Below, in pieces: positions 11,173 through 46,248 of a stretch of 46,248 nt of DNA. Below the pieces are notes generated by a model, which made no database searches, had not been told where the DNA came from, and was given only the letters and a program-made list of their open reading frames with translations. Position 1 is the first letter of the stretch. Each line of letters starts with the position of its first letter. The position numbers and the translations under genes are program-made. The stretch spans positions 1 through 46,248 of the IMG/VR virus record IMGVR_UViG_3300032163_000001; one strand, given 5' to 3'. This DNA is from a virus.

Positions 11173-12192
11173 ATGATAGTAATGTACCCTATGTTAGTAT
11201 CTACTACTCTTTCTACAGATACACTTCCAGCAATAACGAAAGTTCTAGAAAAGTTTATTTTACTATATAGAATGGATGAGTTTATAGAACGATTTAAAAG
11301 AGCTGATTTCTTAAAAGCAGCTGCTCAAACAGCAGCTAAGTTAATAGGTCAAAAAGATTATAAAGATCAAATTTCAAATATTTTAGCTGAACAAGAAAGT
11401 GAAGAAAATATATATGGAGGAACAAAAAAGCTCCCAAAAGAAAGAGAAAGAGAAAAGAGACCTTATGATCCTCTTGAAAATTTTAAAGTACAAAATGTTG
11501 ATATTCGTTCACCATCAAGAGAGTCACTAAGTCTTGAACCAACATGGCTTAAAATACAACACCCTAAATGGGGAGATACAGTAGTTGGTGTAAAAGCACT
11601 ACCCTTTCCTGTTTCTTCAGAATATAATTTAATGTATTATCTTACGCAAGATATGACTGCTAATATGCTAACATCTTATGTAAAAGGAAAAATAAGGACA
11701 TGGGGAAGATCTTTTTGGTCTATAATCAGAGGAGCACATATTCCAATTGTAAGTAAGCTTTTAACTAAGACTTTAACGGGTGATCCCTTAAAAGATATTC
11801 TTTATGGAGAAACTTTATTTAGACATAATATATTCTGTATGGTTAACTATAATGATACAGTTACTAGTGGATTACTAAAAGATCCTAAAATTTTAAGAAA
11901 AATGTATGGTATGGGATGGAATTCTTTAATTTTTTCAGACGACATTAATAGAAAATCTATTTTCTGTATGAAAGAATTTGAAGGTTTGTGTTCTACTATC
12001 CCTTATCAAATTATGGGTGCTAGTTTTGGATCAGATTATAGTAAAGTATTTCAATCAATGGAAGAAGTAAGAAAGGCATCAGCATCATTCTTTTCTTTGA
12101 AGAGTCCTAAAGGTTTGTTTGTAGAAGGTTTTACAAACATAGATAATTACTTAAAAAAGTTGTTTGAGGAGAAAGATGGAAGAAGTAAATAA
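11173..12192 (+). CDS. hypothetical protein
   Basis: 339-aa ORF with a GGAGGA ribosome-binding site. Confidence 0.45.
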   Translation: MIVMYPMLVSTTLSTDTLPAITKVLEKFILLYRMDEFIERFKRADFLKAAAQTAAKLIGQKDYKDQISNILAEQESEENIYGGTKKLPKEREREKRPYDPLENFKVQNVDIRSPSRESLSLEPTWLKIQHPKWGDTVVGVKALPFPVSSEYNLMYYLTQDMTANMLTSYVKGKIRTWGRSFWSIIRGAHIPIVSKLLTKTLTGDPLKDILYGETLFRHNIFCMVNYNDTVTSGLLKDPKILRKMYGMGWNSLIFSDDINRKSIFCMKEFEGLCSTIPYQIMGASFGSDYSKVFQSMEEVRKASASFFSLKSPKGLFVEGFTNIDNYLKKLFEEKDGRSK

Positions 12193-12853
12193 CATTAGTG
12201 AGATAACTAATATTAATGAAATAATAGAAAGTCCTACTAACTTCCAAATCCATAGTGATGTAAAGAATCTAGAACTTTATACTGAAGATTATCCCTTTAA
12301 ACTTTCTCTTAGAATTAAGAACTTTACAGACGAATCTAGCTATGTAAGGTTTGTTAGAAATTGTGAGAAGTTATTTAGAACCTGTTTAGAATATAGATTA
12401 TGGAAGAACTATATAACAGATGTTTTGAGATTTAATACATGTATGATTACTAATGAAAAAATGGATGAGGTCAACATTGAAATTCACCACCATGTTCCAT
12501 CGTTGTTTATTTTAATGAAAACTTTAGTTAATGAATGTATAGATACCACTTCACCTTTTTCAACATTTGATATTTGTCTTAAAGCTATAGAAGTACATTT
12601 TTCTAATAAAATTGGATTTATTCCTTTACTTAGTAGTATACATGAAAAGTTTACCAATGGATATTTAGATATTCCAATTGAACTTATAAAAGGTAACTAT
12701 AAAGAATTTTTGAGTTCGTATGCTAAATTTATATCTGAGGAAGATATGGATGTAATTAATAAACGATTAGCTACTAATTTTCAGAACTATAATGCAACTA
12801 ACTGGAAAAAAGATGAATACCCTGGAATTGAAAATGCTAGAACGAATTTGTAA
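12176..12853 (+). CDS. hypothetical protein
   Basis: ORF with a GAGGAG ribosome-binding site before the ATG at 12176. The track start at 12164 is also possible. Confidence 0.4.
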   Translation: MEEVNNISEITNINEIIESPTNFQIHSDVKNLELYTEDYPFKLSLRIKNFTDESSYVRFVRNCEKLFRTCLEYRLWKNYITDVLRFNTCMITNEKMDEVNIEIHHHVPSLFILMKTLVNECIDTTSPFSTFDICLKAIEVHFSNKIGFIPLLSSIHEKFTNGYLDIPIELIKGNYKEFLSSYAKFISEEDMDVINKRLATNFQNYNATNWKKDEYPGIENARTNL

Positions 12854-16461: not shown

Positions 16462-17913
16462 GTGATTAAATTTGAACAACTGGGACAAAAGTCGTGGAAG
16501 TTGTGTAATGATGATCAGTGTATAGAAACGCTTGAACTTTCTTCTTCCTCCATCACTAACAAGTTCTCTATTGTTACTTCATTTATTGAGAATGTTTCTA
16601 AAAGTGTTGGAGATGAATTTGACCAGTGGCTAGTTCAATTTTTGAATGTATATAAGATGGCGGATGAGAAGAGATTTTTAGTGGTAGAAGAAAATATACC
16701 TCAGATGAAAAAATTTGTTGACTCTTATATAGATTCTAAAAATGTAAATTTTAGCCAGTTTGTTGATATGAGTAAGGCGAAAAAAACTAGCATCTTGTTT
16801 TATCCAGAAGAAATAGAAAAGATTATTAGATCGTCAAGTTATCTAAAAGTATATTCGTTAGTTTCGAATTCTGAAGGACTTAAATTAGATAGTAGATTGC
16901 ATAAAAAAGTTTATAATAAGTTAGTTTCTGATCTTCTTGAAGCAGACACTGTTTTTAAAGTGTTTAACATTGTTAAAACTAAAACTTTTAGATACAATAT
17001 TTCTGATAAGTATATGTGGGATTATATTAAAATGATACAGTGTAAGTCAATAGACATATATGCTGTAGAGATTTTTAATTTTATAATGAGCAGTATCTTT
17101 ACTTTATGTGATGAAAATAGAAACCCAATTTCTTATTTTATTAGTGTAGTTGATGAATCTGTGAAATGGTTTTTGAGATCAGTATACAAAGGATCTATTA
17201 TTTATGATGATTCAGTGGCTACAGAAGATATTCAAGCGATTCATATAGATAATTTAAGAACGTATACATACAATGATACTATTGGAAGACTAGAAAAAAT
17301 CGCACATGGGAAAATTCATAATGATTTAGAGAGATCAGTTATCTCTACATTTTCTGAAGATAAAGTTGATAAAATCATTCTGGATTTTGAGAAGAGAGTT
17401 TCTAGTGTAGAACATATTTCTCCACTATGTGAATGTTTAACTTTTCCGATTTTATCAATTGTTGCGGGTGTGCCATACGAGCACTTTAAAACTCTAACAC
17501 CAGATCATTGTATTGTTCTTTCAGTTTATCTTCAGTCATTATTGAAGAAAGTTTTTAATGAAGAGTATGAAAGTTTGTTTGATATGTTGAGTTATTTTCC
17601 TGAGAAAGCGTCTGTTGTACATACGACATATAAAATGAAATTATCGAATTTGAAAGATCAATTTCTACCACAGATGAATACTTGTAAATTCTTGAAGTTT
17701 AATGATAAAGTTTATTTACATGAGATTCTATCTTATTTTGTTGGCAGGATTGCTAGAGTAGATTTTATAGATGCTGTTACAGGAAAAGGTTTGGGCGGAA
17801 TTCCTCTTAGTAAAATTGAATCTGATATGATTAAGTTTTACTCTTTGTTCTTCAGTGGAAAATTCGAGAAAGAATTCGAAGAAGTAAAAGTGCTTTTGAA
17901 TAGTGATTTTTGA
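16462..17913 (+). CDS. hypothetical protein immediately upstream of the RNAP genes
   Basis: 483-aa ORF with a GTG start and a perfect AAGGAGG ribosome-binding site. Its stop overlaps the beta-prime reading frame. Confidence 0.45.
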   Translation: MIKFEQLGQKSWKLCNDDQCIETLELSSSSITNKFSIVTSFIENVSKSVGDEFDQWLVQFLNVYKMADEKRFLVVEENIPQMKKFVDSYIDSKNVNFSQFVDMSKAKKTSILFYPEEIEKIIRSSSYLKVYSLVSNSEGLKLDSRLHKKVYNKLVSDLLEADTVFKVFNIVKTKTFRYNISDKYMWDYIKMIQCKSIDIYAVEIFNFIMSSIFTLCDENRNPISYFISVVDESVKWFLRSVYKGSIIYDDSVATEDIQAIHIDNLRTYTYNDTIGRLEKIAHGKIHNDLERSVISTFSEDKVDKIILDFEKRVSSVEHISPLCECLTFPILSIVAGVPYEHFKTLTPDHCIVLSVYLQSLLKKVFNEEYESLFDMLSYFPEKASVVHTTYKMKLSNLKDQFLPQMNTCKFLKFNDKVYLHEILSYFVGRIARVDFIDAVTGKGLGGIPLSKIESDMIKFYSLFFSGKFEKEFEEVKVLLNSDF

Positions 17914-17944
17914 GAACAAATATAAAACTACAAAAGGGATAATA

Positions 17945-20900
17945 ATGTTAAAATTCTTAGATGTAGAAAAATTCTCAAGAAATCTTTTAGCCGTAACTAA
18001 TACAGAAATGTTTACAAGAACTGGCGAGCCGCATACACAGGGACTATTCTCCGAAGCTATTTTTGGATCTATTGGAAGTTTAGATAGGAGACAAAGGTAT
18101 TCTTACATTGATTTAAATATAAAGATAATTCATCCAGAGGCCTATAGAATCCTGATACAATTAGATAGGAAAGTAGAGAAATTCTTTTCCACAGAAAGTT
18201 TGTTCTCTTCAGATAAATCAGGAAAGTTAATTGAGTCTGAAGATGGAATAACTGGCATCTCTGAATTTATTAAGATATTTCCAAAGATTTCTTTTAGAGG
18301 TGAGACTTCGGAAAGAGAGAGACTTATTAAAGTGCTTAAAGAGTCATATACCTCTAATACGTTGTTTGTTTCAAAACTCCCTGTGATACCTCCAGATCTT
18401 AGGCCAGCATATACTGACGCTAAAGGTACTAGAATAATTGATCCTTTGAACGATTTTTATATTAGAATTTTAAGAAGATCTTTTCAAGTTAGAAGTGCTG
18501 GACCAACTGGAATATTTTCTGATCTTATAAGATATGGTTTACAAAAGTCTATTAATGATTGTGATACTTTTGTTAGGACGAAAATTGGAAAGAAAGGTGG
18601 AGTAGTTAGAGATCAATTACTATCTAAAAGAGTAGATTTTTCTGGAAGAGCTGTTATTACACCAAATCCAAACTTAGCAGTTAATCAAATTGGAGTGCCA
18701 TTAAAATTAGCAGTTAGTTTATTTGAGCCATTTTTACTACACGTTTTGTTATATTCAAATAAAATAAATAAGGAAGAACTAGAAAAAGAAATAGAAAACT
18801 TTTTACATACGAGTTTATCAGTAGACTCTGTGAAAAATGTAATGAAGTCGATTAAAGCTGGTCATGAGATTCCATCTAACCTTTATGAAATCTTTTTTAA
18901 TGCTGCTGAAATGGCTATAGCTGGACGTGTTGTTCTAGCAAAAAGAGATCCAGATTTACATCCTGAGTCTATTAGATCATTCTACCCAGTTTTAACAAGA
19001 GGAAACACTTTAGAAATATGTACGTTACAAGTTGGTGGATTTAATGCAGATTTCGATGGTGATGCTATGGGAGTTTTTCATCCACTAACTAATGAAGCAC
19101 AAGGAGAAGCGAAAGAAAAGATGATGAGACCCCAAACTGGGGTAACTTATAATTCTATAGCTTTTGAACTATCGAGAGAAATGTGTGTAGGTTTGTATTT
19201 ACTAACTAAAAGTGTTCGACCCAAGAATTCTCCTATTCATGTTTCTGAAGAAGATCTAGAAAAAGCTACAGATCCTTATATAGCAGTAGTTTATAGAAAT
19301 AAGAATACTACAATGGGAAAAGCTATTGTAAATAGTTGTTTTCCAGAAGCATTTCCATTTATAGATACTTTACTAACTAGAAAAGTAGCTAATGAGTTAA
19401 TAAATTCAGTTCTAGAAAAACATGGAAATAAACAAGGAGAACAAACAGCATCAAAACTCTCTAAAGTAGGATTTAAATTTGCTACTATAATTTCTCCTAC
19501 GTTGAAATTGTCTGATCTAGAAGTTCCAGATGAGATATATAAATTAAAGGAAAAAATGAAAGGAGTTTCAATTGAACAGGCAAATGTGTTGTTAGAAAGA
19601 ATGAGAAAGATAATGGTAGTTTATTTAAAAGATACAGGATTATATAATTTAGTAGAATCTGGTTCTACTAGAGGTTGGGATCAACCAATGCAAATTCTTG
19701 TAGCAAAAGGAATTATTGCTGATCCAAAAGGTAACCTTTTAGAACCAGTGAAAAGTTCATTATCTGATGGACTTACAACTACAGAATTTTTTAGAGCGGC
19801 TGCTGGTTCTAGGAAAGGAATTATTGATAGGGTTATAAATACTTCAGATACAGGATACTTATCTAGAAAGTTAGCTTATTTTTTAAGTCCAGTAGAAATT
19901 GATCCTTTTGTAAAAGATTGTAGAACTAAAAAGACTTTGTCGTTAAAAATAGATGAAGATTTATCTAGAAGACTACATGGAAGATTTATTGAATATGGTG
20001 GAAAACTTGTAGAATTTGATCCAAATCTATTTAGGACTGGTTCGCAGATAGACTTAAGGACTCCAATATATTGTAAGAGTCCAAGAATTTGTCATATATG
20101 TTATGGGAAATTAGTAGAAAGGCATAAAACTCCTTATGTTGGAATACTAGCAGCACAAATTATTGGAGAAAGAGGAACTCAAATTATCATGAGATCTTTT
20201 CATCTAGGAGTTGCTAAAATAGTTGAGAGAAGTATACTTAAAGAAATTGCAGAAAATGAGCCAATGATATCTCTAGATAAACTATCGTCTTATTTAGTCC
20301 AAAGAGATAATAGATTAACAGCTTTAAAGAACTGTAAAGTGATAATTGATATGAATGATTATGATGTTGGTGATAGTATGGTGGTGGAAGAAGATTCTAT
20401 ACAAGTTAAAAGCTTACTAAGTCAAATTGAGTTTGATGATGTAATTTTTTATTTGATTTTAGATTTTCCATGTAACTTGTATGTAGAGAAGAAAGTTGAA
20501 GAAGGTAAAGAGAGAATTGAATTGTTTTATAAAGAGGGTTCTACAATACTAGACGTGCCAACAGAAGTTACAGAAATGAAACAACAAGTTAACTATGTGG
20601 AAAGACTTATTGGTGGAAAAGAAGTGTTTAAAGACGTTGAACATTTATATCGAAAACTATATAAAGTTTACGCGCCTCTGTCTCCAATGGATTCAGTACA
20701 TTTAGAAATTGTAATATCACAGTGTTTAAGATACAGATTAAATCCTGCTTTACCTGCACGATTAGGGAAGACGTGGGATCCAGTATTGATTAATATAAAG
20801 AAGACAATATTTTCTAGCGGATTCATGCAGGGTTTGGCTTTCGAGAACGTGAACGAAGCTATCAAGGTAGGGTTAATTTCTGAGGAAGAGATTCCACCAT

Positions 20901-20947
20901 CAATTATTGAGAAACTAATGACAACTCCGCTTGTGGGAGCTAAATAA
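17945..20947 (+). CDS. multisubunit RNA polymerase beta-prime-like subunit (unsplit)
   Basis: GLFSEAIFGS matches ERDGLFCARIFGP. VSKLPVIPPDLRP matches LPVLPPDLRP. RVDFSGRAVITP matches RVDYSGRSVI. The catalytic NADFDGDAM motif is present. AAAGSRKGIIDRVINTSDTGYLSRKL is bridge-helix-like. AAQIIGERGTQIIMRSFH is trigger-loop-like. The ATG at 17945 (AAGGG ribosome-binding site) is preferred over the GTG at 17903. Confidence 0.85.
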   Translation: MLKFLDVEKFSRNLLAVTNTEMFTRTGEPHTQGLFSEAIFGSIGSLDRRQRYSYIDLNIKIIHPEAYRILIQLDRKVEKFFSTESLFSSDKSGKLIESEDGITGISEFIKIFPKISFRGETSERERLIKVLKESYTSNTLFVSKLPVIPPDLRPAYTDAKGTRIIDPLNDFYIRILRRSFQVRSAGPTGIFSDLIRYGLQKSINDCDTFVRTKIGKKGGVVRDQLLSKRVDFSGRAVITPNPNLAVNQIGVPLKLAVSLFEPFLLHVLLYSNKINKEELEKEIENFLHTSLSVDSVKNVMKSIKAGHEIPSNLYEIFFNAAEMAIAGRVVLAKRDPDLHPESIRSFYPVLTRGNTLEICTLQVGGFNADFDGDAMGVFHPLTNEAQGEAKEKMMRPQTGVTYNSIAFELSREMCVGLYLLTKSVRPKNSPIHVSEEDLEKATDPYIAVVYRNKNTTMGKAIVNSCFPEAFPFIDTLLTRKVANELINSVLEKHGNKQGEQTASKLSKVGFKFATIISPTLKLSDLEVPDEIYKLKEKMKGVSIEQANVLLERMRKIMVVYLKDTGLYNLVESGSTRGWDQPMQILVAKGIIADPKGNLLEPVKSSLSDGLTTTEFFRAAAGSRKGIIDRVINTSDTGYLSRKLAYFLSPVEIDPFVKDCRTKKTLSLKIDEDLSRRLHGRFIEYGGKLVEFDPNLFRTGSQIDLRTPIYCKSPRICHICYGKLVERHKTPYVGILAAQIIGERGTQIIMRSFHLGVAKIVERSILKEIAENEPMISLDKLSSYLVQRDNRLTALKNCKVIIDMNDYDVGDSMVVEEDSIQVKSLLSQIEFDDVIFYLILDFPCNLYVEKKVEEGKERIELFYKEGSTILDVPTEVTEMKQQVNYVERLIGGKEVFKDVEHLYRKLYKVYAPLSPMDSVHLEIVISQCLRYRLNPALPARLGKTWDPVLINIKKTIFSSGFMQGLAFENVNEAIKVGLISEEEIPPSIIEKLMTTPLVGAK

Positions 20948-21552
20948 TGATTATCTATAAAGCTGAGAATAAAGTTAATGGTAAGGTTTATATTGGTCAA
21001 ACTATTAAGAACATTGATAAAAGAATTTCTGAACATTTAAAATCTGAATATAGTTGTGGTATTGTTTTTCGAAATGCTCTTAAAAAATATGGAATTCAGT
21101 CTTTTGAAATTTCTATTATAGATAAAGGAGAATCTAGAGAAGAACTTAATGAGAAAGAAAAATATTGGATTAAGTTTTATAATTGTAAAGTCCCAGATGG
21201 TTATAATTTGACCAATGGAGGAAATGGAATTATTGGATATATCTTTACTCCAGAGGTTAGAAAGAAAATTGGTGATTCTATTAGAGGAAAGAAAAATCCA
21301 ATTCATTCAGAATGGATGAAAAAGAATAATCCAAATAAGAAACTAGAAGTTAGAGAAAAAATGGGTAGTCCTGGAAAAAGTAATGGAAGATTTGGTAAGC
21401 ACTGGTCCGAAGAAGAAAGAAAGATGATTAGTGAAAAGACAAAACAAGGTATGAAAAATTCAAGAGCTGCGGAGAAAATAAGTAAAAAATGTAAAGGAAG
21501 AATTCCTTGGAATAAGAAACTAATAGAGGCTAACAATGGCAATAAGGTTTGA
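20947..21552 (+). CDS. GIY-YIG homing endonuclease (copy 1)
   Basis: IYKAENKVNGKVYIGQT (GIY...YIG), KYG, EKYWIKFYN...GYNLTNGG. It overlaps both the beta-prime stop (TAATG) and the beta start. Confidence 0.7.
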   Translation: MIIYKAENKVNGKVYIGQTIKNIDKRISEHLKSEYSCGIVFRNALKKYGIQSFEISIIDKGESREELNEKEKYWIKFYNCKVPDGYNLTNGGNGIIGYIFTPEVRKKIGDSIRGKKNPIHSEWMKKNNPNKKLEVREKMGSPGKSNGRFGKHWSEEERKMISEKTKQGMKNSRAAEKISKKCKGRIPWNKKLIEANNGNKV

Positions 21553-24500
21553 AAAATTTCGACTTAATACACAAACTACTGACTCATTACGTTTCGTCTT
21601 AACAGATCAGAATATAGATCGTCCATACGCACTCGTCTACTTCTCTGAAAACTCTACTTTTATTGAAGACTATCCAAAGCTAAATCTTAGACCAGTAGAT
21701 TTTAGAATTGTCCTTGTCCCCTGGTCTATTCTTCCGAAATCTTCATTAACTAAAGATATGAGAGATGAGTATAAGAAACTTGGTTTACTTGCATATTCTA
21801 GTCGATTAAAAAATATGCCAAAAAGAAGAAATATTATAATTGATATTTCTGAATATATCGCAGCGATTGATAAATATCTAAAACCCATTAATTATAGACT
21901 GCGGGCTGGAAGGTATATTATTAGTCTTTTAAAATCAGTAGCTTTTAACTGGTCTAAGGATTATGAACTAGTTTTTGTTTACTCTATAGATATCAACAAA
22001 CCTATCTTTAAAATTATTGATAGAAGAGTATTTCCGATTGTTCGAAATGTAAGAGATGAAGAGTTTCCATTTAAACATTTTATTTTATCTACTATTGGTG
22101 CATCAAGTGTAAGATATCGTCTTTTGATGAAAAATGGAAGTTTCAATTACGCATTTTTGTGGCAGTATATAAAAGCTATTACACAATCTCATAGACCTGA
22201 GATAGAAGACCATGAAACAGTTGATATTCCGAAAGTTGATAAAGACGATGATCCAGAAATAGAGTCAGCTTCACAAGATATAGTAAAACATGTAGAACCA
22301 CATGTTGACAAAAAAAATGTTCAAAAATTCAAATCTTCTATTTCTTCTTTTTTAAAGAAAGATAATAAATCACTGGATAGAGTTATTTCTAAAGAAGTTA
22401 CTCCAGAAGAAAAACAAAAGATTGCTATCGCTTCAATCCTATATAAAAGTACAGGAGACTTACAGAGAGCTAAAAGTATAGCGAAATATATTCCAACAAA
22501 AGATGTTCTTAAAGCTTTGGTAAATGTTGATAAGAAGTATGCAGATGAACTTTTACCGCGAGTTCCAACTCTTTCTACATCAGAACACCCTATAGTTAAA
22601 CTTGTTGATATTCCAGAAATTGTAGAGAAAAAAGTTCCTACTCATATTATAAGTAAGAGACAAATAGATTTTCATGAAAACTTGAAGAAAGATGTTATTT
22701 CTTCGTTCTCTACTCTTGCTAAGAAGAAAGAAGGAGCAGTAAGACTTGAGAAACTTGAAATAGAAGATAAACCAGAGAAAAGGGGAGAAGTAGAGAAGAC
22801 TGATTTAGCAACTCTAAAAGTTGTTCTAAAAGACGAATTTGGGAATGTACATAAAATTGTAATTGACATTCCTAAGATAGATCAATTTGGAACGTTTAGA
22901 GTTAATGGAATAAGACAGTGCCTTTTAAACCAAATAATTTTTTGTCCAATTACGTTTCCAAAAAGGTATGATTCAAGGTTTGAAAGTTTTTACTCACAGT
23001 TTCATATTAAAAGTAAAAGAGTTAGAGAACCATACTATTTAGAAATCTATATGGGTGGAAATATTATTCCATTACTAATTTGTTTAGGTTATGGTTTTGG
23101 ATTTGATAACGTTCTAAAAGACTATGGAATTTCTTACAAAGTTGTAGATAAAAAATCTAAGGAAGAATTTTCTAGTAAAGTAAACGAAGACAAATATATT
23201 ATATTTGAAAAGGTTGATAATGAACTTAAACAAGAATTATGTACTTCTTTTATCAAGGCAAAAGTTTGGAAATATAAAATTGATAAAGAATTTCCTAGTA
23301 GAGAATACTTCAATGATTTAATCATTAAACTAACAGGAAGAATAAATTCTACATATATGATTCAAACTAACATAGAAAATATTATAGATCCAGTAACTAA
23401 ACAAGTTTTATTGAATAAAGGTCAACCAGTAACACTAGATCAAGTTATGAGATATATGGCTTCTAAAGTAGTTACTGGTTATATAGAAGATTTGAATGAC
23501 CTTTCTTCAAGAAGAATAAGAAGTTCTGAAGTTTTAGTTCATTTACTTCAGGAACAAATAGAAGCTGCTTATACTGTTTATAGATCTCAAATTCTTTCTG
23601 GAAATAAGAGCGCTAAACTAGAGATTTCTCCAATTGCACTTATGAAAAAATTTAAACAACAAGAAATAGTTGTTAATATGGAATACTCGAATCCACTAGA
23701 AGAACTAGCTACTTTAACTAAAATTAGTCCAATAGGAAAATCAATAAGCGGTATACCAGGGAGAGAATCTGTACAAGTTAGTGCTAGAGATATTAACGAT
23801 TCGTTTTTTGGTAACATAGATCCTTTAGATACACCTGAAGGGGAAATGGTTGGGATAGTGCAGTATCTTACAGTTGATGCTAATATAACTACAAGTAGAG
23901 GTTTGTTTTTTAAGAAGTCTCTGGATGATAAAGAAAAGTCTGGAATACTTTCAACATCTAGTTCAATGATTCCATTTATTGAAAGAAATGATGGTGCTAG
24001 AGTTTTGATGGCTGATGGTCACTCAAAACAAGCTTTGCCTTTAAAGAACCCGGAATCTCCAATAGTACAATCAGGTTATGAATCAGTTCTCACAAGGTCT
24101 TTATCTGACAACTTTTTAAAACCATCTCCGTGTGATGGAGTTGTCCAGAATATTACAAATGATAGTATTACGATAGAATGTAAAGATGGAGAAAAAGAAA
24201 GTGTTGATATTACACCAAGGTATCTAAGATCTGGAACTGGGAAAGATACTTTAAGTGTTTTTAATGTTAAAGTTGAAAAGAATCAGAAAGTTAGAAAAAA
24301 TCAAATACTTGCAGAAGGTGCGTGTATTTCTAATGGTATGATTTCTTTAGGAAGAACTTTGTGTGTTGCGATAATGAATTATAAAGGATATAATTTTGAA
24401 GATGGAATAGTAGTTAGTGAAAAACTGATAAGTGAAGAAAAATTGACATCTCTGCATGGAGAAGAGATTGATGTATGGGTTTCTGAGAAAGATAGAATTT

Positions 24501-25690
24501 TGTTTGTAAATTCAATTGGGACTGTTACTGAAAGAGGAGATGCTCTTTTAAGAAAGACTAGAGGTGAGATAGAAGAACTTCTTGGTTATACTGAAGAAGT
24601 TGAAGATGAATCAGTTTATATATCAGGCCGAGAATTTATGAAGAAAAGTCCAGGTGGTGTAATTGTAGATATTGAAGTATTTACGAATGTTAAATCAGAA
24701 AGATTTCCATTACTTAAAGATTTAATTGAAAGAACTTCTAGAAAATATAGAAAACCTTCTGCTGATCCATTTACAATTAAAGGAGAAAGGATAAATGGAG
24801 TTTTAGTTCGATTTAGAGTAGAGCAAGAACTAAAGATAACTCTAGGAGATAAGATTTGTAATAGATATGGAAATAAAGGAATTATTTCTTTAATAGAAAA
24901 ATCTGAGTATATGCCTAGAACTCCATGGGGAGAAGAGGTTGATATTATATTGAACCCTCTTGGTTTAGTAAGTAGGATGAATATTGGTCAGTTATTTGAA
25001 ATATATTGTGGACTTATCTCTAAAGCTTTAGCTATAAAAATTGTAGAAAGTAATGACCAAAATAGAGCTGTAGAAGGTTTAAGAAGAACTCTCCCACTTC
25101 TAGATGGAACAACTAAAAAAATATATAGTAGTAGTTTAATACAAAGTATATCTAGACTTACAAAAGCAGATTTTTCTAGACTTATAGATAGTATTACGAA
25201 AACGAAGTTCTTTCCAATTATAATACCTCCATTTCAATCACCTAAACTACAAGATATTAAGAAATGCTTAAAAGCTTTGGGTTTAGATGATGGATATCAT
25301 TTGACATTACCAGAGTTCGCGACTAAAACTTCTGAGAAAGTCCCAGTGGGGTATATGTATATTTACAAGTTAGAACATCTTGGAGAGTTAAAGATTTACG
25401 GTCGTTCTACAGGGATTGTTTCTGGCAAAGTTATGCAACCTGTTTCTGGAAGAAGGTTAGAAGGAGGACAAAAGATAGGAGAAAATGATACCTATTCATT
25501 ATTCTCATATAATTGTCCAATTTTGTTAAGTGAACTCTTTGGGCCATTGTCGGATGATCATACTACAAAGAATGAGATCATTTCTGATATAATTCATACT
25601 GGTGGAGCTAAGTATAGAGAAGCGAAAGTTTCGCCGGTTAAAGATCTCTTGAACGCCTATCTCGTATCTCTTATGTTAGCTCCGAAGTGA
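21536..25690 (+). CDS. multisubunit RNA polymerase beta-like subunit with a roughly 440-aa N-terminal extension
   Basis: QFGTFRVNGIRQ matches GTFVINGTERV. DPLDTPEGEMVG matches PIETPEGPNIG. RNDGARVLMADGHSKQA matches ANDANRALMGANMQRQA. GDKICNRYGNKGIISLI...VDIILNPLGLVSRMNIGQLFE matches GDKMAGRHGNKGVIS...VDIVLNPLGVPSRMNIGQ. Confidence 0.85.
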   Translation: MAIRFEKFRLNTQTTDSLRFVLTDQNIDRPYALVYFSENSTFIEDYPKLNLRPVDFRIVLVPWSILPKSSLTKDMRDEYKKLGLLAYSSRLKNMPKRRNIIIDISEYIAAIDKYLKPINYRLRAGRYIISLLKSVAFNWSKDYELVFVYSIDINKPIFKIIDRRVFPIVRNVRDEEFPFKHFILSTIGASSVRYRLLMKNGSFNYAFLWQYIKAITQSHRPEIEDHETVDIPKVDKDDDPEIESASQDIVKHVEPHVDKKNVQKFKSSISSFLKKDNKSLDRVISKEVTPEEKQKIAIASILYKSTGDLQRAKSIAKYIPTKDVLKALVNVDKKYADELLPRVPTLSTSEHPIVKLVDIPEIVEKKVPTHIISKRQIDFHENLKKDVISSFSTLAKKKEGAVRLEKLEIEDKPEKRGEVEKTDLATLKVVLKDEFGNVHKIVIDIPKIDQFGTFRVNGIRQCLLNQIIFCPITFPKRYDSRFESFYSQFHIKSKRVREPYYLEIYMGGNIIPLLICLGYGFGFDNVLKDYGISYKVVDKKSKEEFSSKVNEDKYIIFEKVDNELKQELCTSFIKAKVWKYKIDKEFPSREYFNDLIIKLTGRINSTYMIQTNIENIIDPVTKQVLLNKGQPVTLDQVMRYMASKVVTGYIEDLNDLSSRRIRSSEVLVHLLQEQIEAAYTVYRSQILSGNKSAKLEISPIALMKKFKQQEIVVNMEYSNPLEELATLTKISPIGKSISGIPGRESVQVSARDINDSFFGNIDPLDTPEGEMVGIVQYLTVDANITTSRGLFFKKSLDDKEKSGILSTSSSMIPFIERNDGARVLMADGHSKQALPLKNPESPIVQSGYESVLTRSLSDNFLKPSPCDGVVQNITNDSITIECKDGEKESVDITPRYLRSGTGKDTLSVFNVKVEKNQKVRKNQILAEGACISNGMISLGRTLCVAIMNYKGYNFEDGIVVSEKLISEEKLTSLHGEEIDVWVSEKDRILFVNSIGTVTERGDALLRKTRGEIEELLGYTEEVEDESVYISGREFMKKSPGGVIVDIEVFTNVKSERFPLLKDLIERTSRKYRKPSADPFTIKGERINGVLVRFRVEQELKITLGDKICNRYGNKGIISLIEKSEYMPRTPWGEEVDIILNPLGLVSRMNIGQLFEIYCGLISKALAIKIVESNDQNRAVEGLRRTLPLLDGTTKKIYSSSLIQSISRLTKADFSRLIDSITKTKFFPIIIPPFQSPKLQDIKKCLKALGLDDGYHLTLPEFATKTSEKVPVGYMYIYKLEHLGELKIYGRSTGIVSGKVMQPVSGRRLEGGQKIGENDTYSLFSYNCPILLSELFGPLSDDHTTKNEIISDIIHTGGAKYREAKVSPVKDLLNAYLVSLMLAPK

Positions 25691-36941: not shown

Positions 36942-37157
36942 ATGAATAAATTTTATATTGAAGTTGGAGATAGAGTAAAGAGGAAGGATTGGTCCTGTGA
37001 TAGTGAAGTATCTAAAATCGAACCAAACCTAAATACTTTTTGGTTACGTACATCTGATGGAAAAGATGAATTTTCATATCAATTAGTAGGAGATGATTGG
37101 ATAGTATACAGGAAAAGAGAGAAGATAGTATGGGAGAGAGTAGATGAAACTACTTAA
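36942..37157 (+). CDS. hypothetical protein
   Basis: 71 aa with a GGAGA ribosome-binding site. Confidence 0.4.
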   Translation: MNKFYIEVGDRVKRKDWSCDSEVSKIEPNLNTFWLRTSDGKDEFSYQLVGDDWIVYRKREKIVWERVDETT

Positions 37158-37230
37158 AAATACTATAACTGATTATTGTAGAAGATGGAAAAAGAATATC
37201 TAAGATTTAAAATAGAAAGGAGAAAGGATC

Positions 37231-39566: not shown

Positions 39567-40649
39567 TTGCCAAAGAGATTAGTTAATAAAAAATTTCTGC
39601 AGGAACAAGCTATTAAATTATATACGGAAGAATTTCTTAGTTTAAATCAAGTAGCAGAAGTTCTTAATATTAGTCAAAGACAAGTTTTTAGATTCGTAAA
39701 AGGTAAAACTAGAAGTATAGTAGAATCTAGAAGGATAACTTCAAAAGTCAAAAATTTAGATTTCTTTGATAATATAGATTCAGAAGAAAAAGCATATTTT
39801 CTTGGACTTATATATTCAGATGGTTGCTTACATGAAAATCGTGGAGTTACTATATCATTAGAAATAACGGATAAACATTTAATAGAGAAATTTTCTTCAA
39901 TTTTTAACTCAAATATCACATATGAAACAACAAGTAATGGATCAATCCATTGTCAAACTAGTATTTGGTCAGTCTACATAACTAGATCATTAGAAAAAGT
40001 AGGAATATATCCAAGGAAAAGTTCTTTGAAGGATGTAGATATTCTTAATAATTTACCAAAACATTTACTTAGACATTTTATTAGAGGTTTTTTAGATGGA
40101 GATGGATGTATATATGAAAGTAGAAAAGATACATATGGAGTTACTTTGAGTGGAAATAACGAAAATTTTATATTTAAATTAGCTGAAGAGATTAAAGATA
40201 ACTGTGATTTTAACTACCTTAGAATTTCAAAGAATTGTAAATGCAATTGTAGATCAATTACAATTCATGGAAATCTTAAATCGAAAGTTTTTCTTGACTG
40301 GTTATACAAAGATTCTAGTATATTCATGTACAGAAAAAAAGCTATTTATGAAAAAATAGTAGTCCAAGTAAATAACAAGAAATTTACTGGAGTTAGGTTC
40401 GATAAAAGAAATGGAAAATTTCGAGCTGTATTAGGTTACGAAGGGAAAAGAACATATTCAAAGTTTTGTATAAGTGAACAACAAGCTGCTGAACTCTATG
40501 ATAAAATGGCTACTAAACAAAATTATGAAAGATATCAACTAAATTTTCCAGAAAGATATGAGGAGTACTTAAAGAAAATAATACCAATATACTCCAAGGA
40601 GAAGGGAGGTCCCCATGCCACTCTGGAAATGCACCAAGTGTCACCATGA
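39567..40649 (+). CDS. LAGLIDADG homing endonuclease with an N-terminal HTH and a C-terminal AP2-like DNA-binding domain
   Basis: Two LAGLIDADG-type motifs, YFLGLIYSDGCL and FIRGFLDGDGCI. N-terminal LNQVAEVLNISQRQVFRFV is HTH-like. C-terminal GVRFDKRNGKFRAVLGYEGKRTYSKFCISEQQAAELYDK follows the AP2 pattern. TTG start with an AAGGAGG ribosome-binding site. Confidence 0.65.
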   Translation: MPKRLVNKKFLQEQAIKLYTEEFLSLNQVAEVLNISQRQVFRFVKGKTRSIVESRRITSKVKNLDFFDNIDSEEKAYFLGLIYSDGCLHENRGVTISLEITDKHLIEKFSSIFNSNITYETTSNGSIHCQTSIWSVYITRSLEKVGIYPRKSSLKDVDILNNLPKHLLRHFIRGFLDGDGCIYESRKDTYGVTLSGNNENFIFKLAEEIKDNCDFNYLRISKNCKCNCRSITIHGNLKSKVFLDWLYKDSSIFMYRKKAIYEKIVVQVNNKKFTGVRFDKRNGKFRAVLGYEGKRTYSKFCISEQQAAELYDKMATKQNYERYQLNFPERYEEYLKKIIPIYSKEKGGPHATLEMHQVSP

Positions 40650-42947: not shown

Positions 42948-44249
42948 ATGGATAATCTTATTCCAGAATTATATAGGGATTATGGACTCTACGTCAATTA
43001 TTTTAGAGCTTTTCCACTGAGTGTTGATGGATTAAAACCAGTAGAAAGACGAATCTTGCTATCTACATATGAAATAGCAAAAGATAAATTTGTTAAATCT
43101 GCTAGAATTGATGGACATTGTTTAGGTCATTATCATCCACATTCTTCTTCTTATTCAACAATAGTTCAGTTAGTGAATCAAGGTTTTTTAGATGGGCAAG
43201 GTAACTGGGGAATGGATTCTGGAGTTGAACCTAATCCAGCTGCTGCAATGAGATATACTGAATGTCGACTTTCTAAGTTCATTAATGATTTAACATTTAA
43301 ATTGATAGATTATGTTCCAGTTCAACCTAGTGAATTAGACGACGAACCAGTATATCTTCCGACTATGTTCCCACTGTGTTTATTAGGTAACAGTTATAGT
43401 GTAGGAATAGGCTTTGGTTTTAAAACTTTAATTCCATGTTATAAAGTTGAAGACTTAAAAGAAAGACTTCTATTCTTATTAGGAAAAACAAAGAAGAAAC
43501 CTACTATAAAACCAATATCAGATTGTGGGATTTTATCTGGAGAACAAGATCTAGAAACTTTATTAACAACTGGAAAAGCAACAATTCAAACTAGAGGAGT
43601 GATTGAAATTGACTATAGACAATGTAAAGTTACTGTTAAGTCTTGGCCTTTTGTTAGACGATTTGAATCTATCCTTTCTAAATTTTCTAAAGAACTTGAA
43701 AACCAAGATGTTGGATTTACTGATCTTTCTACGGATAAAACTAAGATTGTATTTGAAGTTTTAAAACAAAGAAGCAGAGATGAAATATTCAAATCTTTTG
43801 TTAAGAAGTTACAGAGCGCACTAACAGGGGCAGTGTCGTTCGAAATAACTGTTGTGGATGTAAGTAGACAAAGAATTAGAACTATGTCTGTAGATCAAAT
43901 GCTATTAGAAACGTATAAAATGTTTTTAAAAACAAATGAAGTAATGCTGAAATCAACTATTTCAAAGATAGATGAACATATCACAGAAAATAAAATACTA
44001 CAAAAGGTGATTCCATCATTGAAAAAACATATGGGAAGAGAAAGTAACATTAGTAATACAATTGAAGAAATTAGTAAAGAAACACATGTAGCTGGAGAAA
44101 TAATTGCTAAGTTATTTAACAAGTATAGGATAAACAAGTTACTAACAGTGTCTTTGGATACAGCAGATTTAGAGAGGGATAAGTTAGTATATGTTAAGAA
44201 CTTAGGAAATATTGATGAGTTTGTTGTAAATCAATACGAGAAGTTGTAG
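42948..44249 (+). CDS. type II DNA topoisomerase breakage-reunion subunit (GyrA N-terminal domain or T4 gp52-like)
   Basis: RAFPLSVDGLKPVERRIL matches the GyrA motif RALPDVRDGLKPVHRRVL. AAMRYTECRL matches AAMRYTEARL, which holds the catalytic Tyr. Confidence 0.75.
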   Translation: MDNLIPELYRDYGLYVNYFRAFPLSVDGLKPVERRILLSTYEIAKDKFVKSARIDGHCLGHYHPHSSSYSTIVQLVNQGFLDGQGNWGMDSGVEPNPAAAMRYTECRLSKFINDLTFKLIDYVPVQPSELDDEPVYLPTMFPLCLLGNSYSVGIGFGFKTLIPCYKVEDLKERLLFLLGKTKKKPTIKPISDCGILSGEQDLETLLTTGKATIQTRGVIEIDYRQCKVTVKSWPFVRRFESILSKFSKELENQDVGFTDLSTDKTKIVFEVLKQRSRDEIFKSFVKKLQSALTGAVSFEITVVDVSRQRIRTMSVDQMLLETYKMFLKTNEVMLKSTISKIDEHITENKILQKVIPSLKKHMGRESNISNTIEEISKETHVAGEIIAKLFNKYRINKLLTVSLDTADLERDKLVYVKNLGNIDEFVVNQYEKL

Positions 44250-44258
44250 GAGATAATT

Positions 44259-44480
44259 ATGAGACAGCTAATAACAAGACTTACTGCTAGACAAATAGTT
44301 GCTGAACTTTGCGAGACAGGGAATTTACTTAGGTTTATAGATAGATGTATGAGTGAAGCGAGTTGGTATGGAATGTATTCTTATTATAATCGATCGTTAT
44401 TTCAAGGTTTTATAAAAGAAGCACTAGAAGAAAGGGGGTTAACTCATGTTTCTAGTAGAGAAAACATTTTAGAGTTTTAA
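44259..44480 (+). CDS. hypothetical small protein; its 3' end contains copy 1 of a 46-bp direct repeat
   Basis: 73 aa with a GTAGGAGA ribosome-binding site. Confidence 0.4.
   Translation: MRQLITRLTARQIVAELCETGNLLRFIDRCMSEASWYGMYSYYNRSLFQGFIKEALEERGLTHVSSRENILEF
44424..44469 (+). repeat. direct repeat copy 1 (46 bp, 3 mismatches) of the QueD gene start region
   Basis: ctagaagaaagggggttaactcatgtt is identical at 44424-44450 and 44756-44782, with similarity continuing about 19 nt further. Confidence 0.7.
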
Positions 44481-44495
44481 TAAAAAGGGGTTAAT

Positions 44496-44756
44496 ATGGA
44501 AAAAGAATTATGTCCTTATTGTAGAAAAGAGCTTAGATTTACTGTAGAAAACTGGTCAAAAACATTTATGATAGTTGATAATAAAACTATAAAAGATATC
44601 ACAAGTTATTATTCTGATATGTCAGTATTTTTTATATGTGATAATTCTTTGTGTTCTAGAAAAGGGACTTATGTTGAAAAAGAGTTACTATCTAAAAAGT
44701 GCGATGATACTATAATGGAAATAGTAGAACTTCTTAATGACACTGTATTATTTTAA
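44496..44756 (+). CDS. zinc-ribbon small protein located between the direct repeats
   Basis: CPYCRKEL...CDNSLCSRKG. Confidence 0.4.
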   Translation: MEKELCPYCRKELRFTVENWSKTFMIVDNKTIKDITSYYSDMSVFFICDNSLCSRKGTYVEKELLSKKCDDTIMEIVELLNDTVLF

Positions 44757-44801
44757 CTAGAAGAAAGGGGGTTAACTCATGTTCCTAATAGAGAAGACAT
44801 T
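44756..44801 (+). repeat. direct repeat copy 2, carrying the ribosome-binding site and start of the QueD-like gene
   Basis: See copy 1. Confidence 0.7.
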
Positions 44802-45189
44802 TAGAATTGCGATGGGTCATAGACTTAGTCAACATCAGGGTTTGTGTAAAAATTTTCATGGGCATAACTTTGTTATAAAAGTTGGTGTCTCTAGAAAAGA
44901 TTTAAATTCTGGGGGTATGATAGTCGATTTTTCAGATTTGAAAGATGTTGTAAATATGGTGCTTAAACCATTCGATCATGCTATGGTAATAAATGGAAAT
45001 GAAAATATGGAAATAAGAGAAAAATTTCGTGATTTTAAACTACTTATGATTGATGGAGAACCTACAGCAGAAAATCTATCTAAGTTTTTCTATGATGCAA
45101 TTCGAGCAGTTCTTTCTGAAAGACTAGATTTAGAATATGTTGACGTTTGGGAAAATGAAGATTCTATGGCGATGTATACGCCAGATTAA
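44779..45189 (+). CDS. queD: 6-carboxy-5,6,7,8-tetrahydropterin synthase (QueD/PTPS family)
   Basis: FRIAMGHRLSQHQGLCKNFHGHNF contains the CxxxHGH zinc motif. GMIVDFSDLK and FDHAMVIN match the PTPS DF and DH..LN motifs. Confidence 0.7.
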   Translation: MFLIEKTFRIAMGHRLSQHQGLCKNFHGHNFVIKVGVSRKDLNSGGMIVDFSDLKDVVNMVLKPFDHAMVINGNENMEIREKFRDFKLLMIDGEPTAENLSKFFYDAIRAVLSERLDLEYVDVWENEDSMAMYTPD

Positions 45190-45202
45190 AAGGACTAAAA
45201 AT

Positions 45203-45433
45203 ATGAGATGGAAAAATGGGGGTAGTAGAAGGAAGTTTGGTGTTAAAGAAAAGTTTGCATGGTTACCAATATTATGTAAAGGATTTGGAGGAATCAGAGT
45301 GTGGGTATGGTTAGAAAAAATCTATGTAAGAATGTGGGTAAGGTGCGGTAGTTATACTATAAGTTACTATACTCCAGAAAGAATGCTTGAAAATAAAGTG
45401 AGAGAAGAAGAAGTTGAAGGGGTGATAAAATGA
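45203..45433 (+). CDS. hypothetical small basic Trp-rich protein
   Basis: ATG at 45203 with an AAAGGA ribosome-binding site. The track start at 45137 overlaps queD. Confidence 0.3.
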   Translation: MRWKNGGSRRKFGVKEKFAWLPILCKGFGGIRVWVWLEKIYVRMWVRCGSYTISYYTPERMLENKVREEEVEGVIK

Positions 45434-45636
45434 AAGAGCACAAAATAAAAGTTCGAAAAGACTATCCAATGTGTGGTGGTATGATTATTCCAGAAGGAAC
45501 TATTTTGAAGTTGATAGATGTAAGTAAACCTTCAGCTGAAGTTTATGTTGATAAAGAAGGAAATGAATTTACATTTGATACTAGTGAAATTTTGTTTTCT
45601 GGATGCTTTTGTAACACAGATGAGGAGTTTAAATAA
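45430..45636 (+). CDS. hypothetical small protein
   Basis: 68-aa ORF whose ATGA overlaps the upstream stop. Confidence 0.35.
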   Translation: MKEHKIKVRKDYPMCGGMIIPEGTILKLIDVSKPSAEVYVDKEGNEFTFDTSEILFSGCFCNTDEEFK

Positions 45637-45662
45637 ATGTAAGTTTGTAAGGAGTGTGATAT

Positions 45663-45920
45663 ATGAATATTATAAAAAGTCTCTGTAACTTATTTAGAAA
45701 GAAAGATGGGATATGGATTAATGGATTACAACGTGTAACTAAAGAAGAACTAAAAGATCCTTTAGTCAAGTCTTTTTATGAAGATAAAGAGTGTCCAGAT
45801 TGTAAAAATAAAGAGTTCTTAGAAGGGCCACACGGGGGAGCTTGTATTAATATCAAATGTTCGTCTTGTGGTTCTAAATTTAATATTTGTCCAGAGATTG
45901 GTCTTATTGAGAGGATCTAG
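45663..45920 (+). CDS. zinc-ribbon small protein
   Basis: CPDCKNKEF...CINIKCSSCGSKF. AAGGAG ribosome-binding site. Confidence 0.4.
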   Translation: MNIIKSLCNLFRKKDGIWINGLQRVTKEELKDPLVKSFYEDKECPDCKNKEFLEGPHGGACINIKCSSCGSKFNICPEIGLIERI

Positions 45921-45923
45921 AAA

Positions 45924-46248
45924 ATGTATGACTTTAAACTAACGTCAGGAATATGCATTCCAAAAGAATGTGGTAGTCAGTCGTTCTATTCATCTATAAA
46001 AGAACACCTAATAAGGAGGATGAAAGACTATCAAACTTCTGCTTATAGTTTTTATATTTTTTATATTGAGGGAGACAGAATTTTAAAAGTTCCAAGATTC
46101 TTTCCTATTCAACAATATGTTTCTTGTAGTATAGTAGATAATATTTCCGATGGTCAAGATATTTCAATTAATCACAATATACAATTAAGAGATGATCTAC
46201 AAAAAGATATCGTTAGATATATGTTGAGTAATGATAAAGGCATTATTC
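45924..46248 (+). CDS. 3'-truncated ORF, possibly the N-terminus of an SF2 (UvsW-like) helicase
   Basis: IQLRDDLQKDIVRYMLSNDKGII precedes the point where a Walker A would be expected. It runs off the window end. Confidence 0.3.
   Translation, partial: MYDFKLTSGICIPKECGSQSFYSSIKEHLIRRMKDYQTSAYSFYIFYIEGDRILKVPRFFPIQQYVSCSIVDNISDGQDISINHNIQLRDDLQKDIVRYMLSNDKGII

Follow-up and report, generated by a model that had tools for sequence, protein, structure and literature searches.

Tailed phages are mosaics that gain extra genes ("morons") through illegitimate recombination at gene boundaries. Here, we analysed a 46,248-nt stretch of viral DNA (IMG/VR record IMGVR_UViG_3300032163_000001, positions 1 to 46,248; hereafter the window, on which all positions are counted), in which an orphan open reading frame (ORF), named ZnR1, separates a small gene, geneX, from queD. 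In T4-type phages, the hyperplastic regions contain orphan genes that shuffle between directly repeated expression signals, with looped-out mini-circles (PMC2839356, PMC4122927). As for QueD, described counterparts are found in phages with 7-deazaguanine in their DNA, such as Enterobacteria phage 9g, Streptococcus phage Dp-1 and Pseudomonas phage NP1 (PMC6884629; L080, L081), and in the Campylobacter phages (Eucampyvirinae), which encode DpdA3; the DNA of CP220 is fully modified with 2'-deoxy-7-amido-7-deazaguanosine (dADG), and vB_CjeM_WX1 (L127) is a relative of CP220 (PMC10516641). Another small phage-encoded T-fold protein of the QueD family is DpdL, the proposed 7-carboxy-7-deazaguanine (CDG) decarboxylase of Cellulophaga phage phiST (PMC10516641).

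The window resembles the T4-type case in that near-identical phages differ by the gain and loss of small orphan genes, in variable stretches amid core replication genes, and in that these genes have direct repeats of expression signals on either side, across which recombination can loop a gene out or in. By analogy, the modular shuffling mediated by PeSL cassettes may be regarded as the nearest described process to the insertion seen here. However, the repeat in the window duplicates a single gene junction locally, with its coding overlap, its Shine-Dalgarno sequence and its start codon, and is not a dispersed cassette of promoter and terminator. A PeSL-type cassette was rejected, as promoter-like sites are at background level (16 versus 12.6 +/- 4), no terminator-like site was detected and the repeat has two copies only in 46 kb. 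The likeness to morons lies in one additional gene that brings its own ribosome-binding site, is atypical in base composition, lacks homologues and is placed between two genes of an operon-like array. Unlike morons, this gene was inserted inside the overlap of two genes, where a 47-nt duplication was needed to keep both, and the event left an unusually clear footprint and a stub ORF. The insertion is nonetheless an ordinary phage gene gain, an event of a known kind.

A 286-bp segment of atypical composition sits inside the overlap between geneX and queD, with the 47-nt junction on both sides (Table 1). The two copies of the junction are identical at 44 of 47 positions and are spaced by 333 nt. 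The 24-nt core of the repeat, GAAGAAAGGGGGTTAACTCATGTT, occurs at these two sites only across the window, even when up to 3 mismatches are tolerated, while none is expected (100 shuffles). The repeat corresponds exactly to the geneX-queD overlap plus the ribosome-binding site. Since the two genes overlap, any insertion between them destroys one or the other unless the overlap is duplicated. As the junction is duplicated here, geneX keeps a stop codon with a slightly altered C-terminus, queD keeps its ribosome-binding site and start codon, and an 8-codon stub remains. The GC content of the segment is 25.2%, among the lowest 1.5% of 286-nt windows, and the segment has no paralogue inside the window. 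No RNA element or regulatory cassette was detected in the insert, with nothing relevant in Rfam.

The closest relatives show the same junction without the insert. Scans of viral and metagenome collections returned relatives of at most 54% identity, and the closer ones, short metagenome contigs (loci are denoted below by L numbers), came from protein searches. We found geneX homologues in 13 relatives (L016-19, L022-24, L065, L082, L086 and L128/L129), each abutting or overlapping the start of queD, and none of these 13 other geneX-bearing loci has an intervening gene (0/13). No match to geneX itself was obtained in Pfam or PHROG. Five loci lack the 333 bp and represent the empty site: L128/L129, L016 and L017/L018, the queD genes of which are 99.1%, 89.8% and 80.3% identical to that of the window at the nucleotide level. 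In these, geneX overlaps queD by 26 nt (L128/L129), 50 nt (L016) or 44 nt (L017/L018), and the Shine-Dalgarno sequence of queD lies within geneX. Moreover, the end of geneX in L128 (...HVPNREDI*) is what the window would read once the 333 bp are removed. We take the arrangement in which geneX ends inside queD as the ancestral one, and it is retained by the closest relatives. Given the empty sites in relatives, the orphan status of ZnR1 and the atypical GC content, parsimony favours a gain in the window lineage over repeated loss.

The inserted ORF occupies the 286-bp segment almost exactly, and its stop codon spans the boundary between the insert and copy 2. A stop-free run as long as ZnR1 was obtained in 17 of 2000 shuffles of the segment. 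ZnR1 has no Pfam or PHROG match, including to homing-endonuclease domains (HNH, GIY-YIG, LAGLIDADG and similar), and no signature of a nuclease, transposase or integrase. A word-indexed search of 5.8e9 proteins returned only the self-match, and a full HMMER scan of 1.84e9 representatives gave one marginal partial match only. A single-sequence AlphaFold model had low confidence (pLDDT 61). We also considered that ZnR1 could be a diverged tandem duplicate of the 5' part of queD, which was rejected as local scores fall within the range of shuffled sequences (48/500 for nucleotides, 216/2000 for protein). The CxxC N-terminus of ZnR1 (44483-44572) shows a weak tblastx similarity to window positions 37117-37206 (47% over 30 aa, E=0.019), probably merely a common zinc-knuckle motif.

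These results agree with most of what had been proposed for this junction from the letters alone. The direct repeat of the original prediction is real and measures 47 nt, not 46 bp; its first copy does encode the C-terminus of the preceding small protein together with the MFLVEKTF stub; a small gene, an ORF with four cysteines, does lie between the copies. The suggestion that the repeats flank an inserted cassette is also borne out, geneX directly overlapping queD in the closest relatives, and the polymorphism of the insert, for which a comparison of relatives had been advised, is present, L128/L129, L016 and L017/L018 having the empty site.

The repeat also marks a recombination breakpoint. 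Compared with L128, the nucleotide identity of the window is 94.5% at the 3' end of the topoisomerase gene and 86.5% over geneX and copy 1, whereas it is 99.1% over copy 2 and queD and 99.0% over the 1053 nt from queD to the window end. To the left of the breakpoint 57 of 691 nt are mismatched, versus 15 of 1486 nt to the right (Fisher p=5e-17), so that a block 86-94% identical to L128 meets one that is 99% identical. The copies differ from each other at three sites; there, copy 2 carries the letters of L128 and L016, while copy 1 agrees with L017 at two and differs from L128. Since the copies match different relatives at variable sites, they now differ in ancestry. In the queD frame two of these differences are synonymous and one exchanges Val and Ile, while in the geneX frame all three change an amino acid. 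Two histories fit: a duplication in situ with a later exchange with an L128-like phage at the junction, or a single unequal crossover between diverged phages.

We then examined the protein encoded by queD. It matches the Pfam PTPS profile PF01242 over residues 4-134 (profile positions 2-119 of 121, E=6.2e-31) and PHROG 2389, "QueD-like" (E=9e-26). Its motif CKNFHGHNF (C23-K-N-F-H27-G-H29) contains the CxxxHGH signature, with Lys and not Glu after the Cys. This signature is that of PTPS-I/QueD, while folate-type PTPS-III has ExxHGH and PTPS-II CxxxxxHGH (PMC5041015). Residues H14, C23, H27, H29, D66, H67, E98 and E125 are conserved at 95% or more in an alignment of 46 distinct clade homologues; the zinc ligands (three His), the catalytic Asp-His pair and the Glu align with those of the solved 6-carboxytetrahydropterin (CPH4) synthases 7v0f and 4ntm. 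The identification as a CxxxHGH QueD/PTPS protein, already made in the original prediction, holds for domain, signature, and catalytic and zinc residues alike. We therefore accept the protein, on its sequence, as a QueD-type enzyme, a divergent new member of a known family. From the conserved residues we infer that it is an active CPH4 synthase that would use dihydroneopterin triphosphate made by the host.

The QueD proteins of the 7-deazaguanine phages 9g, Dp-1 and NP1 belong to the same T-fold family and share the CxxxHGH motif and the zinc and catalytic residues, with 27-28% identity to the window QueD. In those phages, queD lies within ~5 kb of folE, queE, queC and dpdA, whereas in the window it stands alone between the topoisomerase subunit and the helicase. 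The Campylobacter phages are nearer in layout, with a likewise large genome in which QueD is not beside other pathway genes. WX1, however, has a DpdA3-like gene ~11 kb from queD, detected with the phiST seed, and none was detected in the window or the clade loci. A link to proteins of the Campylobacter-phage deazaguanine region beyond QueD was rejected, QueD alone being common to both. DpdL has LxxxHRHxF where the window QueD has CKNFHGHNF, and the DpdL seed matched the control locus L010 only. The window QueD is thus not DpdL: it lacks LxxxHRHxF, and the phiST DpdL seed found no match in the window.

Taken together, it is likely that this locus of a large uncultivated phage has received an orphan gene, with duplication of the junction, in a variable stretch of its replication module, and that its QueD is an active CPH4 synthase. 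The duplication could stem from recombination, illegitimate or unequal, when related phages infected the same cell, or from a looped-out circle integrating at the conserved junction, and only those events that duplicated the overlap would have kept both genes intact. A homologous exchange, later or simultaneous, may have used the conserved junction for its crossover. If the two copies recombined with each other, the gene would be excised precisely. An analogue exists in L128, where a 21-nt junction repeat flanks a 76-aa gene specific to that locus.

Several points weigh against this interpretation. No donor of the insert was found in our searches, so that it is parsimony that supports the direction and mechanism of the event. 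The copies differ at three positions only, too few to tell duplication in situ followed by exchange from a one-step unequal crossover. ZnR1 is a predicted gene, the expression of which is assumed. The sequence comes from a metagenome assembly, in which a strain-chimeric join at the junction could yield the step in identity, but not the duplication. Finally, the window QueD scores 86.6 bits on NCBIfam TIGR03367, for a cut-off of 89.25, while its homologue in L015 reaches 97.6.

A mobile element, transposon-like or of the homing type, could have made the 47-bp target-site duplication by itself. The insert is a single gene bracketed by direct repeats, several homing endonuclease genes are present in this phage, and in L014 this very site holds an HNH domain joined to QueD. 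However, the lack of nuclease, transposase and integrase signatures in the inserted ORF speaks against such an element, as do the absence of inverted repeats at 44000-45400 and of a second copy in the window or in any searched database. Moreover, 47 bp is much longer than typical transposase duplications. We consider a mobile element very improbable, and rejected a transposable element, the insert having no transposase or integrase gene and no inverted repeats.

We give equally little credence to the reverse polarity, in which the ZnR1 arrangement would be ancestral and the relatives would have lost the gene through recombination between the repeats. Such recombination of the 47-nt copies would recreate the exact L128-type junction, and a deletion of this type best accounts for the absence of another gene, ZnR2, in L016. 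But the empty site is found at all sampled depths, from 99% to ~50% QueD identity (13 loci), ZnR1 has no homologue anywhere searched, and the stub is a partial copy of queD, hence must come from a duplication. An assembly artefact, in which two strains from the same sample would have been fused into a chimera at the conserved junction, is scarcely credible: the source is indeed a metagenome assembly and the step from 86.5% to 99.1% identity coincides exactly with the repeat, but a chimeric join cannot make an imperfect 47-nt duplication around a unique 286-bp sequence that holds an intact ORF and its Shine-Dalgarno sequence, and records from JGI, Logan and ENA sources contain the identical QueD and ZnR1 proteins.

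The insertion of ZnR1 thus offers a clean natural example of how a phage can add a gene between overlapping genes with neither damaged, the overlap being duplicated and a stub left behind. The near-identical relatives that retain the empty site make the event datable.

Given that QueD had been taken as a signal of 7-deazaguanine DNA modification, with folE, queE, queC and dpdA expected nearby and probably downstream, we searched for these partners. The search covered the window, which holds 44 kb upstream of queD and is part of a 185.6-kb source contig, and ~190 clade loci (2.9 Mb counting overlaps), together 16,127 ORFs. Seeds for QueC, QueE, QueF, FolE, DpdA1/2, DpdA3 and DpdL, taken from Dp-1, NP1, phiST and control metagenome loci, with DpdA3 seeds from both phiST (record NC_020842) and WX1, were run against all six-frame ORFs of the window and of each locus. 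Two downstream walks, with up to 80 contigs per step, reached ~+32 kb from queD.

As stated in the original prediction, queD is the sole recognisable gene of the deazaguanine pathway in the window. The seeds for FolE, QueC, QueE, QueF, DpdA1/2/3 and DpdL, and a DpdA1/2 profile, gave no match in the window or in the loci with a QueD at least 36% identical to that of the window. When every substantial ORF of the window was compared with Pfam, there was no GTP cyclohydrolase I, QueC, radical-SAM/QueE, TGT/DpdA or DUF6610 domain; DpdA4, looked for through Pfam and in the window only, was not found. In control loci with QueD of at most 33% identity (L010-13, L072-77), these seeds did pick up complete clusters, all within 5 kb of queD, and the phiST DpdA3 seed recovered the Campylobacter-phage protein, a positive control. 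The expected partners are therefore lacking both in the window and at about -10 to +32 kb of queD in the ~190 clade loci, so that the proposed DNA modification has no backing from partner genes. Modification of the phage DNA with 7-deazaguanine is possible but unsupported.

For phages with pathway genes and no obvious DpdA, two roles have been put forward, namely a boost of host tRNA queuosine or a yet-unrecognised transglycosylase (PMC6884629, PMC10516641). The boost was proposed for phages with preQ0-pathway proteins but without DpdA (PMC6884629), and we count this in favour of a QueD that works alone here as an auxiliary metabolic gene. It would lift CPH4 and preQ0 through the host QueE, QueC and TGT, and so raise tRNA queuosine and aid the translation of NAU-rich phage genes. 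Indeed, NAU accounts for 80-86% of the Asn, Asp, His and Tyr codons of the window genes (16.4% of all codons), and L128 has a gene for a CCA-adding-type tRNA nucleotidyltransferase right after queD. However, the NAU bias equals the general AT bias of the other codon boxes, and no tRNA genes were found in the window. In addition, a dispensable booster of translation would not usually be kept so strictly in one place of the replication module, as queD is in 26/26 loci of a very diverse clade. A lone auxiliary role is thus conceivable, though we consider it doubtful.

Alternatively, QueD could belong to a complete phage system for 7-deazaguanine DNA modification (FolE, QueE, QueC and a DpdA transglycosylase), the other genes of which would be elsewhere in the genome of at least 185.6 kb. 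The signature and catalytic residues are intact and strictly conserved, and queD is embedded among genes of DNA metabolism. The precedent of Campylobacter phage vB_CjeM_WX1, in which QueD lies amid unrelated genes with the DpdA3-like gene ~11 kb off (PMC10516641), also fits, and so does the report that every virus with 7-deazaguanine synthesis genes in the same dataset encodes DpdA (PMC10516641). On the other hand, no partner gene appeared over the range searched, although the seeds did recover full clusters in the control loci. The radical-SAM enzyme of the clade is not QueE but of the SPASM/MoaA type: its best matches are PapB, NirJ, viperin and MoaA-type SPASM proteins, with a QueE-like similarity of E=2e-4 only. 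We regard a complete system as unlikely.

More improbable still is that the clade truly lacks FolE, QueE, QueC and every known DpdA, and that QueD serves an undescribed guanine- or pterin-derived nucleotide or DNA chemistry. One possibility is that QueD pairs with the co-conserved MoaA-like SPASM radical-SAM enzyme encoded a few kb downstream; this partnership is conceivable because both families act on GTP-derived substrates. A QueD annotation by itself predicts 7-deazaguanine DNA poorly: queD is conserved in this clade to the same degree as the topoisomerase and helicase genes, yet it has no known partner within tens of kb. If whole genomes confirm the absence of partners, the clade would be a good place to seek either a new family of transglycosylases or another use for CPH4. 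Of the features described here, only the lone, strictly conserved QueD of the replication module could open a new direction.

Table 1. Features of the geneX-queD junction and of the genes around it (window positions).
Feature	Position	Strand	Basis or remark
Topoisomerase II/IV subunit A-like gene, conserved upstream anchor	42948-44249	+	Pfam DNA_topoisoIV, E=1.9e-48
geneX, 73-aa small protein	44259-44480	+	Last 3 codons and stop (LEF*) supplied by the insert
Direct repeat copy 1: geneX 3' coding sequence, relic queD ribosome-binding site, queD codons 1-8	44423-44469	+	Matches L128 single-copy junction 43/47
queD stub ORF: ATG, MFLVEKTF, stop (8 codons)	44446-44472	+	Read directly from the sequence
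Inserted segment, 286 bp	44470-44755	+	Missing in L128/L129, L016, L017/L018 (alignment, blastn)
ZnR1, 86 aa, four-cysteine orphan ORF	44496-44756	+	CxxC...CxxxxC (Cys6/9/48/53); own Shine-Dalgarno AAGGGG
Direct repeat copy 2: predicted functional queD ribosome-binding site, codons 1-8	44756-44802	+	Matches L128 junction 46/47
queD, PTPS-I / 6-carboxytetrahydropterin synthase-type, 136 aa	44779-45189	+	Pfam PF01242, PHROG 2389
g76, small gene of the variable queD-helicase stretch, 76 aa	45203-45433	+	Present in L016, L128; absent in L017, L015
g68, small gene of the variable queD-helicase stretch	45430-45636	+	Present in L016 (91% nucleotide identity), L128; absent in L017, L015
ZnR2, 85-aa zinc-ribbon-like protein, just upstream of the helicase	45663-45920	+	Homologues in L023, L082-87
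ResIII/DEAD helicase N-terminus, cut by the window end, conserved downstream anchor	45924-46248	+	Homologous to the 474-aa helicase of L016

The order of the core genes, GyrB-like, topoisomerase A, QueD, helicase, SbcD, SbcC and SPASM radical-SAM, is conserved throughout the clade. QueD was found between topoisomerase A and the helicase in all 26 loci retrieved with an unrelated, non-QueD query, and every related locus has the topoisomerase subunit directly before queD or geneX. The surroundings of the insert vary in the manner of a hyperplastic region. Between topoisomerase gene and queD, the slot is empty in L015, holds geneX in a subclade and an unrelated 216-aa gene in L020, while L014 has an HNH/zinc-finger domain there that precedes QueD as an in-frame N-terminal fusion (11318-12223). 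In L128, a 76-aa CxxC ORF (452-682) lies between the topoisomerase gene and geneX, with a 21-nt repeat of stop codon, ribosome-binding site and start codon (81% identity) at 434-454 and 633-653.

The slot between queD and the helicase holds from zero to about ten small genes across loci. In L128, a 473-aa PolyA_pol+HD gene of the CCA-adding type (1259-2680) directly follows queD. The start of g76 is placed at the ATG at 45203 on the basis of a ribosome-binding site and of the homologues in L016 and L128, the mechanical ORF (45137-45433) beginning inside queD. In L023 and L082-87, the gene just before the helicase encodes a ZnR2 homologue (76-86% identity). An 85-aa gene takes this position in L128, within a block 99.0% identical to the window at the nucleotide level, and ZnR2 is missing in L016 and L017. 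A 7-nt repeat, AAATGTA (45635-45641 and 45922-45928), flanks ZnR2 and leaves a helicase-start stub, "ATG TAA", at 45637-45642. The L016 junction equals the window minus the segment between the AAATGTA repeats. We considered ZnR2 as a second insertion, at the helicase start, and rejected this since relatives further removed also keep ZnR2 ahead of the helicase; the absence of ZnR2 in L016 is probably a microhomology-mediated deletion.

The Pfam content of the window includes RNA polymerase beta/beta'-like subunits, ribonucleotide reductase, RecA, RuvC, a GyrB-like protein and homing endonucleases. The multisubunit RNA polymerase beta- and beta'-like proteins are encoded at 17903-20947 and 21536-25690, and relatives have a second beta'/beta-like pair ~17-22 kb downstream of queD (L107, 17259-19913 and 20487-22457). 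The two polymerase sets are reminiscent of phiKZ-like jumbo phages. Among GenBank phages, the best match to the topoisomerase subunit is only 31% identical and no nucleotide match to the window was found.

Selfish elements are also numerous. The window has a gene for a LAGLIDADG+AP2 endonuclease (39567-40649) and two GIY-YIG ORFs between 471 and 42633, and the topoisomerase subunit of L015 (7212-9521) carries an intein, with 769 aa versus 433. Downstream of the helicase, the clade conserves two sets of genes: one for the 342-aa radical-SAM/SPASM enzyme, closest to MoaA among solved structures, with a small WYL_2-like protein after it (L015, 15422-16813), and one for a ubiquitin-like trio of prokaryotic E2, JAB and ThiF(E1) proteins (L123, 9998-14572). 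Upstream of the topoisomerase gene, L082 (384-2828) and L086 (1061-3520) encode a protein of ~815 aa with a major-vault-protein shoulder domain (PF11978) and a weak Vault_3 match.

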